Source: Eledone cirrhosa
Lineage: Eukaryota
Assembly: GCA_964016885.1 (NCBI GenBank)
Contig: OZ024749.1
Coordinates: 2,356,001 to 2,420,000, forward strand
Direction: 5' to 3'
Length of the DNA stretch: 64,000 nt
A program made the position numbers and the translations under genes. A model generated the notes under the pieces. It was not told the origin of the DNA and made no database searches. It saw only the letters and a list, made by a program, of their open reading frames with translations. Below are positions 21,679-34,066 of this stretch, in pieces (positions within the stretch are counted from its first letter, which is position 1; each line of letters opens with the position of its first letter).

Positions 21679-22028
21679 GAGGGCGGCTGCCCGCGTTAGA
21701 AGGTGCTAAATGTTCGGTCGCCCTCATGTCTCTGATCTTCATCAGCACCATGGATGTTGTCTATTATATTCCTCTGTTATATTTCGAATACCTGATGATG
21801 TCACCTGTTTCATACTGAACCCGGTCATTGAAATAATCATAGTTTAATAAACCTGTTAAGGAATTCCACCAGTCCAGCCTCCTGTTATTTTATAATAATT
21901 AACTCCGTACTCGCACCACCAACTGCACAAACAAACCCTGGTGAGCCGCATTACGTCGAGTGCTCTCCCTAATATTACATCGAGGTGGAATGACCAGATC
22001 TATCCGGTGGTGAACCAACAAACCTAAA
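21679..22028 (+). mobile_element. family C HHR element; degenerate HHR at 21788-21845
   Basis: Homologous to 32998-33391; atacCTGATGA...GAAAtaatcATAgt; tail gtcgagtgctctcc...aaccaacaaacctaaa(TA)n. Confidence 0.8.
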
Positions 22029-22088
22029 TATAAATATATATATATTTATATATATATTTAAATAAATATTTATATAAATATATATATT

Positions 22089-28437: not shown

Positions 28438-28642
28438 AGACTGTACAGAGGGTTATGTATCATACTTCCTTAAAAAGATGTTTGAAACAAATGTACACAC
28501 ACACACACACACACATACACAGACACACACACACACATATACACACATACACACACACACACACATACACACACACACACACATATATATATATAAGGAT
28601 CAACGGAAGCAGCGTTGCACTTTCAGTTACTTTAACACCATT

Positions 28643-29042
28643 TCAAACCTTGATATGCCCATGACGAGGCGACACTTCTTTCTTGACACGAGTCAAACCT
28701 TGATATGCCCATGACGAGGCGACACTTCTTTCTTGACACGAGTCAAACCTTGATATGCCCATGACGAGGCGACACTTCTTTCTTGACACGAGTCAAACCT
28801 TGATATGCCCATGACGAGGCGACACTTCTTTCTTGACACGAGTCAAACCTTGATATGCCCATGACGAGGCGACACTTCTTTCTTGACACGTGTCAAACCT
28901 TGATATGCCCATGACGAGGCGACAGTTCTTTCTTGACACGAGTCAAACCTTGATATGCCCATGACGAGGCGACACTTCTTTCTTGACACGAGTCAAACCT
29001 TGATATGCCCATGACGAGGCGACTCTTCTTTCTTGATACGAG
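28643..29042. repeat. 50-bp minisatellite, 8 near-identical copies
   Basis: tcaaaccttgatatgcccatgacgaggcgacacttctttcttgacacgag, period 50, no spacers. Confidence 0.97.
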
Positions 29043-29209
29043 AAAGGATATGCTGGTTTCCAACAATTACTGGTAGCTTTAGTATCTGATCACAGTGTAC
29101 AAACCAGCGGAAGATATATATTCATGTAGCTAATTACATAAATTTCTAGTAAATTTTTTGCAGACACTGTACAGGCTGTGCCATAAAAAGTGGGAAGAAA
29201 TAAAAAATA

Positions 29210-29500
29210 AATAATAGATATGAATGCTAGAAAAGTATTGGAGTACTATGAGCAAACCCAGCTTAATGACAAGAATAGAATAATGGGTATAAATGCATTA
29301 GCTCTCTCTGTTATAACCTACAGCTATAACATAATAAACTGGAAGTTAAGTGAAGTGAAATGCCAATACAGAGAGAAAACAACCCAACAAAGCACCCACG
29401 TATATATGGAATCCATCAACTCAAGTGCTTATGTAGATAAAATATAACTGGCAAGAATACATTGAGAGGCGGAAGAGTGGCTAATACAATAAGTGAACTA
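29210..29500 (+). pseudogene. highly degraded R4-like LINE fragment
   Basis: LNDKNRIMGINALALSVITYSYNIINWK resembles LNSRNAISAVNS.AVSIIRYSAGILRW of the 46.9-kb element. Confidence 0.55.
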
Positions 29501-29918
29501 TTAGAAAGAAGGGAAAATAAGAAATAGCCATAGAGAATTCTATTGGTGGAGAGTAATATCACAGAACCTTTTAGGATTTCAGGATCAAAAGGAATTGTAA
29601 ACTGGCTAAGAGGTTTTTAAGCAATCCATAGGATGCTAGTAGTGTGTCTGGATCTTTCAGAATATTTCGATATGAATAGAGGGCGGAAAAGAGAATAAAA
29701 CATCAGGGGGGAAAAAATAATATTACACACAAAAAATACTGACGGACCCCCCTCCCCCCACACTCACACACACATACACACATACACACATACAGACATA
29801 CACACACGTATAATTAGTTACATTCATCCAGCTTTCTCTCTCAGTCTCATATATATGTATATGTATATGTATATATATATATATACACATATATATATAC
29901 ATATACATATATATATAC

Positions 29919-30638: not shown

Positions 30639-30660
30639 ATATATATATATATATATATAT

Positions 30661-30858
30661 AAGTTTTAATATAGATGAGATTCTACAGGACTAGAACTGT
30701 TTCATTCTTTAGAAATCATCAGGAATCCTGATGATTTCTAAAGAATGAAACAGTTCTAGTCCTGTAGAATCTCATCTATATTAAAACTTTTATACTCTGC
30801 AATGTATTGAGTACCTTACTTACTGTGATTACCTCCGATTCAACCCGGAATAACGTAC
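30661..30858 (+). mobile_element. family B fold-back element, 64-bp arms around a 1-nt loop
   Basis: Centre a30725; tail tactctgcaatgtattgagtacct; TA flanks. Confidence 0.88.
30678..30728 (-). ncRNA. type I hammerhead; mirror copy 30722-30772 (+)
   Basis: Minus strand: ggattc CTGATGA tttctaaagaat GAAACAG-ttctagtc-CTGTA gaatct. Confidence 0.8.
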
Positions 30859-30894
<36 letters not shown>

Positions 30895-30993
30895 CACACA
30901 CATATATACATATATATATATATATATGTATGTTATATATATATAATAAAATAATAGGAGGCTGGACTTGTGTAAATCCTTGACAGGTTTATT

Positions 30994-31051
30994 ATACTAT
31001 GATCATTTCAATGACCGAGTTCCGTATGAATCCGGTGATATCATCAGGTAT
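30994..31051 (-). ncRNA. type I hammerhead, family C
   Basis: Reverse complement of the 33138-33195 motif with few substitutions. Confidence 0.8.
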
Positions 31052-32918
31052 TCGAAATGTAACAAAGGAATATAACAGACACAATCCATGGGGCTGAAAA
31101 TCATAAACAAGAGGACGACCGACCATCTAGCATCTTCTACCTTAGTCGGTCTCCCTCAAGTGTTAACTATTCGGTCTACTTATGACCATCTACACAAACG
31201 AAGACGGCTGAGCTGCATTACCTTGAGTACTCTCCATAATATTACATCGAGATTGACTATACGGAATGACCAATTCTATCCAGTGGTGAACCAACAAACC
31301 TAAATAAATAATGCTCCAGAAATGTTTAGCACTTTCCGATGTAATAATGAACAGCGGCACTGACTCCAGTGTAGAGCTATCGCCAGCATGGGACTGACTA
31401 ATCTACTTACCATTTAGATTTTGGCTGCTCTGTGCTTTGTCTACCGCCCACCTGGTCCAATGCTGCTTCCCTGTCGGGAATATTCAGACTTCGGCAAAAT
31501 TCTACGGATTATACTGTAACCTGTATTGTATTGATTGAATTCTCTACCCTATACTTCAGGGCCTTCGTGACTCACAATGAATTCTGAGACTCGAACATAC
31601 ACTAGGTATCACCTGATACCATTCCATCTCTTCCATCCTCTATATCTATATGTATTATCTAACTACAACTTGATCTATATTGTATTTTACCTGTGTTTTG
31701 ATTTCTCCGATATGTTCTTATATACTTTCGTTTTATTCCATCACCACCCTAGCTATGGTGGCGTTTTATTTATGTATTTTTATTAATGTATTTTTATTAA
31801 TGTATTCTTATCTTTGTATTCTACTTTTATTTATTTATGTATTTTTGTTTATTGTTCCTTTTATTTAGGTTTTCACTCGCTTTACTCTCATTATGTACTT
31901 ACCATTGTACTCATTAGCACACCTCACGAGAATATTACTCTCTGTACCCTTATATATCCTCCAACCCACCAAAGAAACAGACTTCTTATAACCCGGACTA
32001 ACTGGGGACTCAAAAATAATCTATTTGCGCATTTCATCTGGTTTTACCACTTTCAACCTCCCATCACGGGTGTGAATATATAATAATCGTTTGGTTACAC
32101 GCGATGATCCGACTGATGTGGCGGCTTTCCCGGCTGCCCGCCTGGCGCTCTAGTGCATAAGCCTTCCTTGAGTACTTGGAAAAATAAATTTCCCCGTCTT
32201 TCGGTAAATGAAATTACTCGGAGCGGATTGCTTCGCCCCGGGGCCCGCCGCGCCGCCGGTTTTGACCGCCATATAGTACCTTTAAATTCTAGGTTTAATC
32301 ATAACTATTAGCTGTATCATGCCACCCTCTTCTGGCACGTAAACAAATCCCCCTCCTGTGTGAATTAATAGTATTCGTTTGGTATAGCGATGGCCCGACG
32401 GCGATGGTAGACTTCCCGCTAGCACACCCGAAGCCTAAGACAGTCACATCCTAGAGTACTCGGAAAAATTAATTTCCATCTCTTTCGCTAGACGATATCA
32501 CTCGGAACGGCTGACACGTGGTTAGGAAGGGCTGGCCGGAGTCCGCAGTCGTCGCGTGTTATTGACTGCTAAACAAGGGCTTAATCTTTACTCTATATCC
32601 CACCCTGAAAACTTATCGAGAATCTCTATAATACACTTAAACTTTTTCACATAAGACTTTCTCTGTAAATTCTTTAACTAAATCTCACAACCCAAACCTT
32701 AAACTTTTTTTTAACTATTTACATTTTTTAAATGTTTTTAATTCTTTAATTTCATCCTATAACTTTAAACATAAGTTTAACGTTCCAATTTTCTGTCCAC
32801 ACATTATACCATACAGACACCCACTATATGCCTCTCTTAAGATATAGGTTCTTCGGAAAAACATTTTTCGCAACAATTTCTAACCTGATTGTAGCATGAC
32901 CGTAACGCTGACTTTTCT

Positions 32919-32951
<33 letters not shown>

Positions 32952-33137
32952 TCTTTCACGGGAAGGTAGTACATTATAAGCATTCGCTCCCCTCACCAGA
33001 TGGTCATAAGTAGACCGAATAGCCAACACTTTAGGGCGACCGACTAAGGTAGAAGATGCTAGATGGTCGGCCGTCCTGTTGTTTATGATTTTCAGCCCCA
33101 TGGATTTTGTCTGTTATATTCCTTTGTTATATTTCGA

Positions 33138-33195
33138 ATACCTGATGATATCACCGGATTCATACGGGATCCGGTCATTGAAATGATCATAGTAT
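33138..33195 (+). ncRNA. type I hammerhead, family C, intact core
   Basis: atac CTGATGA tatc-accggattc-atac-gggatccggt-catt GAAA T GATC A TA gtat. Confidence 0.85.
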
Positions 33196-33591
33196 AATAA
33201 ATATTTCAAGGATTTACACAAGTCGAGCCTCCTGTTATTTTATTATAATAATTAACTCCGTACTCACACCACCAACTACACAAACGAAGACGGGTGAACT
33301 GCTTTACGTTGAGTACTCTCCATAATATTACATCGAGATTGACCATACGGAATGACCACTTCTATCCAGTGGTGAACCAACAACCCTAAATACTATATAT
33401 ATATAAATATATATATATTCATGTAAGTATGCATTTTTGTATGTTTGTTTATATGTATATATATATGTTGGTTTTCATAAGAATCCATGGAGAAAGCCTC
33501 GCATTTTTCAGAAGTTGGAAATTTATCAAAGATACTTGTGTGACTGGTTCGCTCATACTTTATATGAAATTAAGCGTACAATGTGTGTCTG

Positions 33592-33645
<54 letters not shown>

Positions 33646-33651
<6 letters not shown>

Positions 33652-34066
33652 ATTAAATAAATGGAAACTATATTTATAAAACCATATTTATTTCATTATA
33701 TATATTTCAGGGATAACATATTAACAATATGCTATGCCTTCCTCAGACAAAATACAATATAAACAGCTTTATAGATAAATAGATTCGACATACCGTAACA
33801 ACATCTACTTGGGAAGTAGATGTTGTTACGGTATGTCGAATCTATTTATCTATAAAACTGTTTATATTGTATTTTGTCTGAGGAAGGCATAGCATATTGT
33901 TAATATGTTATCCCTGAAATATATATAATGAAATAAATATGGTTTTATAAATATAGTTTCCATTTATTTAATATTGTAAATATACTCCAAATATTTGTCG
34001 AGTGCTTTTATATCAGTTATAAATATTTACTAGTTGTAACACAACAATTTAAATATAACTTTCCAC
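33646..34066 (+). mobile_element. family F fold-back element, about 165-bp arms, 3-nt loop
   Basis: Centre ctactt-ggg-aagtag 33811-33813; tail actccaaatatttgtcgagtgct. Confidence 0.9.
33870..33935 (+). ncRNA. type I hammerhead; mirror copy 33689-33754 (-)
   Basis: tattttgt CTGAGGA aggcatagcatatt-gtt-aatatgttatccct GAAA T ATAT A TA atgaaata. Confidence 0.88.

Follow-up and report, generated by a model that had tools for sequence, protein, structure and literature searches.

We analyzed a 64,000-nucleotide stretch of the Eledone cirrhosa genome (hereafter the window) and found that two related GC-rich units within it belong to a 2.09-kb element, which we read as an ORF-less, non-autonomous Penelope-like element (PLE) of the Hydra type. 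Each unit is predicted to fold into a long rod bearing a Y-shaped head, and the heads hold, in reversed order, the two strands of a bulged helix from the element's own 3′ tail. We take the units to be cis components of the element's RNA, and we tentatively put forward, just short of even confidence, the model that they may provide additional binding pads for the RT-endonuclease of an autonomous Hydra element, recruiting or holding it.

The Host Is a Penelope-Like Element without a Reading Frame

At its left end the element has an inverted, tail-less copy of its 3′ region (32998 to 33256), which lies on the minus strand at 30932 to 31191 (inverted repeat I1; 92.7% identity by BLASTN), contains an antisense hammerhead, and adjoins a (TA)n tract. 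The plus strand then carries a partial-tandem copy of the tail at 31185 to 31306 (93.4% identical to 33271 to 33392), a pseudo-LTR remnant that sets the monomer length at 2,086 nt, followed by a 5′ body without an ORF (31307 to 32069), the two units, a type I hammerhead (33138 to 33195), and a one-sided tail (33256 to 33392) that lies between two end classes of insertions and is followed by (TA)n. The tail-to-body junction of the window element recurs in many copies. With a partial tandem forming a pseudo-LTR, an inverted truncated copy, and a one-sided tail, the element that hosts the GC-rich units has the PLE layout, given in the relevant passages of PMC8557442 as a partial tandem with an inverted tail-less copy.

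The plus-strand hammerhead comprises stem I (ATAC/GTAT), a CTGATGA-T ... T-GAAA core that is intact in 65 of 129 copies, and a palindromic helix III, and cleavage is predicted after 33191. Its type and its position in the pseudo-LTR are those of PLE hammerheads with a palindromic helix III in the section of PMC4209133 that treats them. The first-pass annotation had called the element ribozyme-bounded, which holds for the right end, where the sense hammerhead lies; the left hammerhead is the inverted copy. Among 162 3′ ends, 56 fall at 33240 to 33260 and 97 at 33385 to 33392, and an A/T-only stretch follows 111 of them. No conserved reading frame was detected in the element body among 29 copies, and an RT-EN ORF with the RWK, DKT, and CxCx5C signatures is absent from the element, such ORFs occurring in other families of the genome. 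We read the element as non-autonomous and Hydra-type because it forms a large family, has the PLE layout, a Hydra-type hammerhead, and (TA)n ends, and lacks a reading frame in its body. Genome-wide there are 1,270 exact matches to the head pattern (none to reversed controls) and 98 to the 5′ pattern, and an element search returned 41 matches from the 40 scored among 1,434 candidates. The family itself may already be present in repeat libraries.

Relatives of the element were also seen in other arrangements. One locus (L136) holds three full monomers of one subfamily in a head-to-tail tandem over about 7 kb. At 21697 to 22030 of the window a solo 3′ fragment (hammerhead and tail) of an older subfamily sits in (TA)n, a type of fragment with 2,733 candidates genome-wide. 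A branch-point-like CTGAC lies at 32900 to 32975 together with a pyrimidine tract and a sequence resembling an acceptor, which in some copies reads TTACAG; they possibly represent the 3′ end of a retained intron, as in other PLEs, and a donor was not identified.

Two Diverged Units Are Predicted to Form Rods with Y-Shaped Heads

Unit 1 (32070 to 32274) and unit 2 (32358 to 32574) lie on the plus strand with their starts 288 nt apart, and the spacer between them (32275 to 32357) belongs to the duplicated period. They had been described as two related units of about 200 nt, and BLASTN agrees (70.9% identity over 158 columns, E 1.2e-10), the homology extending to about 32274 and 32574 after alignment of older copies. 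Every shared motif named earlier was found in the units, and their surroundings are AT-rich as claimed: GC is 53% in unit 1 and 50% in unit 2 versus 36% elsewhere in the monomer. The conserved heads are themselves AT-rich (GC 37 to 38%). The first-pass annotation was also right that there is no ORF (none of at least 100 aa in the element) and that no known family can be assigned: Rfam gave no match at gathering score, nor any at E ≤ 10 for the units in the window or for six older copies, and covariance models of Rfam families (snoRNA, SRP, 5S, IRES, and ribozymes) matched neither the window nor those older copies. It had weighed a known transposable-element fragment or an ncRNA pseudogene; the host is indeed a transposable element, and the units are neither a decayed coding fragment nor a pseudogene of a known ncRNA. 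Open reading frames beside the units at three loci (L121, L128, and L207) are read as separate nested insertions, which have a different hammerhead or tail or are set off by a (TA)n tract.

Folding was assessed with 72 of 107 extracted units, aligned across several subfamilies, 58 of these 72 rows falling into seven groups of at least three copies. All seven groups had z-scores of −1.9 to −2.9 on the plus strand, and scores on the minus strand ranged from −0.1 to −2.1. The predicted structure is a long irregular rod closed by GUUUGG/CYAARC, at whose top a GAGUR/YACUC stem and two hairpins form a Y-shaped head of 60 nt. Unit 2 of the window, with a full rod closed by GUUUGG/CUAAAC, folds better than shuffled sequences (z −2.57); unit 1 of the window does not (z −0.87), and in this subfamily unit 1 is short of about 16 nt in its 3′ arm, its rod closing in a shifted register. 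A hairpin with a ttcccg loop, proposed earlier, appears only when a shortened unit 1 is folded; in full-length folds the ttcccg stretch pairs with the 3′ arm of the long rod. Unit 1 could also form a 5′ pseudoknot (GUGUG/UACAC), which several subfamilies have lost.

The earlier suspicion of selection on RNA structure finds some support: rod arms co-vary between subfamilies. In the aligned units, 83% of cells pair, versus 33 to 48% for slid partners. When one unit type was folded and the other tested for retained pairs, six tests in old subfamilies gave P values of 0.0002 to 0.083, and the window's own subfamily showed no significant retention (P 0.26 and 0.36); on the minus strand P ranged from 0.10 to 0.98. 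Pairs with double compensatory changes were not clearly above chance (18 versus 22.4 in shuffled data; P 0.049 to 0.46 in the six old unit-1/unit-2 tests). The two-clade structure overwhelmed mutual information between column pairs, and default alifold on noisy copies yielded little. In an alignment-free test of 12 groups (119 of 161 units, at most eight per group), the 5′ and 3′ arms were never taken from the same copy, and cognate arms exceeded the stability expected from row and column effects by 5.2 kcal/mol, for groups that are related to one another. The effect was negative in all 12 groups and none of 20,000 permutations was as low; on raw values the cognate arm outranked all other partners in only 2 of 12 rows. 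Subfamilies in which rod segments have been deleted or replaced still make paired rods below the same head.

The Heads Contain the Tail Motif in Permuted Order

The tail motif of the window element (33255 to 33316, plus strand) consists of ACTC-CGTA (33255 to 33262), an AC-rich loop, and TACG, a TT bulge, and GAGTAC (33305 to 33316). In an alifold structure of 60 of 96 tails, ACUC-CGUA pairs with UACG-[UU]-GAGU, and the motif can be written as RCUC-N4...N4′-UN-GAGYRC, a helix with a UN bulge. The heads hold the same two strands reversed, N4′-UN-GAGURC coming first and ACUC-N4 after the two hairpins. Head 1 (32164 to 32223, plus strand) thus reads TTCC, a TT bulge, and GAGTAC (32164 to 32175), two hairpins, and ACTC-GGAG (32216 to 32223); head 2 (32448 to 32507, plus strand) reads TCC, a TA bulge, and GAGTAC (motif at 32454), two hairpins, and ACTC-GGAA (32500 to 32507). 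The GAGTACT word noticed earlier as common to units and tails reflects a real link, the motif proper being GAGTRC, one strand of the bulged helix; GAGTACT in unit 1 is private to the window copy (1 of 30 close copies), and 197 heads have GAGTGCT in 127 cases and GAGTACT in 36.

With a lenient criterion the motif was too common to be informative (371 of 691 in the background), and a strict test took its place. The strict motif in tail order was found in 66 of 101 of the family's own tails, in 36 of 92 other sites near (TA)n, and in 40 of 426 background sites; in head order it was found in 119 of 169 heads, in 2 of 426 background sites, and in none of 101 tails. Even the loose form arose in only 212 of 200,000 shuffled heads. 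Heads and tails have variable positions in common, the second bulge base and R. All heads descend from one sequence, so that the motif match counts as one event, and it was noticed after the fact. Because none of 198 unit copies has (TA)n within 260 nt 3′ of the unit, the heads are not insertion ends.

The bulged helix is not confined to this family. At the loci examined it lies about 50 to 70 nt before (TA)n in five other families. One of the five is an ORF-bearing family with CxCx5C, CxxC, and CxH signatures, in which it lies 3′ of the hammerhead and 7 of 36 ORF ends have the motif within the examined flank. Published coral and sea-cucumber Hydra elements carry it as well: in the consensus sequences of PMC8557442 File S7 that bear on this point, Hydra-2_Amil and Hydra-2_Ajap have a readable motif at their 3′ ends, including a GCUC/GAGC co-change, the ends of Hydra-1_Amil and Hydra-1_Crog show a partial likeness only, and two further Hydra consensus sequences stop before a tail.

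Within the window, this bulged helix was also observed in tails of further families that target (TA)n, at 30800 to 30860, 13371, 18628, 35711, and about 60048 (minus strand), the last of these tails belonging to the ORF-bearing Hydra-type family. Near-perfect palindromes with hammerhead-like cores at 30656 to 30794 and 33640 to 33984 represent other Penelope-like families flanking the element.

The Two-Head State Arose Twice

Similarity between the two units of a single element ranges from 81% (locus L132) down to about 50 to 59% (59% in the window), and that between their heads from 91% down to 68%; in the least diverged subfamily the duplicated period measures about 360 nt. A very young subfamily (L256 to L280), with 40 matches at ≥98% and copies that are 98 to 99% identical, lacks unit 2 and has two unit-1-type heads. 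In 18 of 25 loci its two unit-1-type copies stand about 505 nt apart and are 94.5% alike; the seven remaining loci are 5′-truncated and start downstream of the first head. Because this subfamily lost unit 2 yet re-duplicated unit 1, the two-head state arose twice. The young subfamily is the best material for probing and expression work. Two contig sets of one sample span the whole element with many variants and are uninformative on expression.

Probable Constraint on the Heads of Master Copies

Changes fixed in subfamilies number 0.13 and 0.23 per column in the heads versus 0.55 to 0.58 in the flanks (P 1e-5 when 36 of 67 copies are grouped; 1e-4 when the number grouped is 49), counts made among real copies that are lower bounds on the changes, and drawn from a set biased by its inclusion of families found by the head pattern. 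The rates of private changes are equal in heads and flanks, near 0.03. Among copies found without the head (39 to 52 of 66 in groups), fixed changes were 0.10 in heads versus 0.19 to 0.29, a weak signal with P values of 0.03, 0.10, and 0.10; in these copies constraint on the rod did not differ from that on the flanks. A separate comparison of heads with the spacer alone gave P 0.03. Between subfamilies the heads thus change two to four times less than the flanks. The head is likely under constraint, short of a firm demonstration, and this constraint acts on master copies and not on inserted ones.

Search for an Autonomous Partner and for Homologs Elsewhere

No sequence-similar autonomous partner was detected in 30 GIY-YIG loci, 30 Hydra-ORF loci, and 20 longer stretches; the structural motif is what the element was found to have in common with ORF-bearing Hydra families. 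The assignment of these ORFs to a Hydra-like clade rests on the motifs described in the relevant part of PMC8557442; Pfam gave them no name. No head was found in ORF-bearing Hydra families among 77 sources scanned, the high scores coming from the window and one known family copy. At one locus (L236, 3582 to 5921, minus strand) a near-complete Hydra-type ORF, open over 780 aa and bearing RWR, DKT, and CxCx5C signatures, lies inserted in the (TA)n that follows a tail of the family.

Viral contigs gave no matches to the head pattern and 29 to the 5′ pattern, which we regard as chance matches, 2 of 29 reaching 12.7 bits on the pattern alone. Eleven pattern matches in metagenomes were likewise rejected, the best, at 24 bits and selected by the pattern itself, lying inside a 576-aa bacterial frame. 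Within the genome, searches by pattern and sequence may miss remote homologs outside the family. In the literature covered, which leaves out Repbase, Dfam, and most subscription journals, units of this kind are not described and the motif strings were unmatched.

A Model of Enzyme Recruitment and Its Alternatives

The two end classes flank the bulged helix, from which we infer that the helix is the likely recognition element. In our model, the partial-tandem locus would be transcribed, and the transcript perhaps cut at the hammerhead; the borrowed protein would recognize the tail helix, and reverse transcription would start at one of the two sites flanking it, with insertion into (TA)n. The heads would bind the same protein yet, we propose, could not prime, as the strand running to the start site in the tail folds back in the head to form part of a three-way junction. 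The rods would keep the heads folded and exposed, so that rod sequence could drift while pairing is kept. In this way heads may strengthen the grip of the element on an enzyme that many families have to share; two-headed master copies would outcompete others, and inserted copies would decay neutrally. Penelope enzymes are relatives of telomerase. Several observations weigh against the binding-pad model. The pair of hairpins in the head matches the motif in conservation yet is missing from tails, which the model does not explain; the window subfamily pair lacks significant pair retention; double compensatory changes are scarce and cognate arms seldom rank first on raw values; the constraint is weak once head-based sampling is removed, and rods do not differ from flanks; the motif match counts as a single event; and the search for an autonomous partner found none. 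The model supplies a precise binding hypothesis, with natural mutants, for RNA choice by Penelope RT, one that separates binding from priming, and if right it would show a route of parasitism by added internal lures that is distinct from plain 3′-end mimicry; the motif might also find use in RNA-templated insertion tools. If it is wrong, what is left is a non-autonomous element of an ordinary kind, whose RNA has a conserved domain in need of another explanation.

A stronger version, which we consider less likely than not, holds that the heads are avidity lures evolved by a retroelement parasite: circularly permuted, non-priming, twice-multiplied mimics, on RNA stalks, of a cross-phylum motif through which Hydra-clade Penelope enzymes would recognize their template; as part of it, and with the same reserve, the 60-nt head might be a portable aptamer able to load any RNA onto a Penelope RT-endonuclease and would define the PLE recognition element.

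The units might instead bind a host protein that stabilizes, exports, or localizes an uncapped, ribozyme-cut or circular RNA, the match to the tail motif being incidental. They would then work like the retroviral CTE or the RTE of IAP elements, known RNA export modules. Such a role would suit rods that are long and imperfect, bear conserved hairpins at their tips, and were both retained as a pair and duplicated anew, and it would suit hairpins that are conserved in heads though missing from tails. We nevertheless think it unlikely, since the head positions that never vary coincide with those of the tail motif, the variable positions also being the same in both, and the scan of 77 sources found no heads in ORF-bearing Hydra families.

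It is improbable that the units are a neutral relic, an old fold-back and chance tandem duplication that hitchhiked, with the apparent constraint arising from sampling and shared descent. Such a history would accommodate the P values of 0.03 to 0.10 obtained once head-based sampling is removed, the poor fold score of unit 1 in the window, the scarcity of double changes, and the fact that between the window and older copies the units are no more alike than the flanks. It sits badly with heads that stay 68 to 91% alike while whole units fall to 49 to 81%, with the advantage of cognate arms, which independent decay would not be expected to produce, and with the independent re-duplication.

We give still less credence to an origin of the units by capture of an ncRNA, of host or foreign source and box C/D-like or otherwise, that was duplicated once and is now a passenger. 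Older subfamilies have GAUG(A) near the 5′ base of the rod and YUGA near its 3′ base, words that we take to resemble C and D boxes, and a possible branch point, pyrimidine tract, and acceptor lie near 32900 to 32970. Several large subfamilies, however, have lost the box-bearing rod base and kept the head, alignment folding places the box letters in an ordinary helix, Rfam has no match, and all matches examined lie inside the present element family. The first-pass annotation had spoken of cargo; in the sense of a passenger ncRNA, ribozyme, or IRES, this description finds no support in units without an ORF, a ribozyme consensus, or an Rfam match. A new self-cleaving ribozyme or IRES, for which only size and a branched fold speak, is very improbable, the monomer having no downstream ORF and already possessing a hammerhead, and the units giving no match to Rfam ribozymes or IRESs and, by eye, no hammerhead or HDV consensus.

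Relation to Known Retroelements

A parallel to the binding-pad model is offered by SINEs, in which a non-coding parasite shows a stem-loop of its partner LINE that is recognized by the borrowed RT; the present element differs in that extra, permuted, and apparently non-priming copies sit inside it on long stalks, and no Pol III head was identified. Among PLEs, it resembles the C-terminal-EN elements of the Hydra clade (Craig et al. 2021, PMC8557442, in the passages on that clade) in its partial tandem, inverted 5′ copy, one-sided tail, and (TA)n target, and most hammerheads of that clade, to judge from the relevant entries of File S2, likewise have a U after CUGAUGA and before GAA. The bulged tail helix is visible in two of the consensus ends published there and is not described in the same passages, which also differ from what we find in that our element has no ORF, a tail of about 140 nt versus 30 to 40, and two internal rod-and-head units.

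Poseidon PAc of the green anole reverse transcribes from two internal sites flanking its tail, and its protein needs RNA 3′ of the internal start sites and has a binding site near the tail for which the motif is not defined in the relevant portion of Frangieh et al. (2024, PMC11167929). The AC-rich loop and AT-rich target are common to both elements, and in ours two end classes flank the tail helix; unlike ours, Poseidon PAc is autonomous, belongs to another clade, and, in the account given there, has no decoy copies. Non-autonomous Chlamys elements such as MRC1 are also ORF-less PLEs with pseudo-LTRs and, according to the section of PMC8557442 concerned, MRC1 depends on an autonomous family through its 3′ end. 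It is of another clade, and internal motif copies are not described for it there, whereas our element has its motif in common with other families and no sequence-similar partner was found. Animal non-LTR retrozymes, proposed to be non-autonomous PLE derivatives (Cervera and de la Pena 2020, PMC7229834; Li et al., 10.64898/2026.07.22.740005; in the parts that concern their origin), are non-coding with a type I hammerhead as well, but those described there form tandem arrays of ~300-nt monomers, each with a hammerhead; our element, which in its way of working resembles a non-autonomous PLE or a large retrozyme, is dispersed, with a 2,086-nt monomer, PLE-type ends, and duplicated internal units (a 290- to 500-nt repeat) that contain no hammerhead.

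Farther upstream in the window, a degraded LINE-like coding fragment was observed at 29000 to 29650, which by its motif is presumably R4/Dong-like, and a 50-nt tandem array lies upstream of it at 28543 to 29142.
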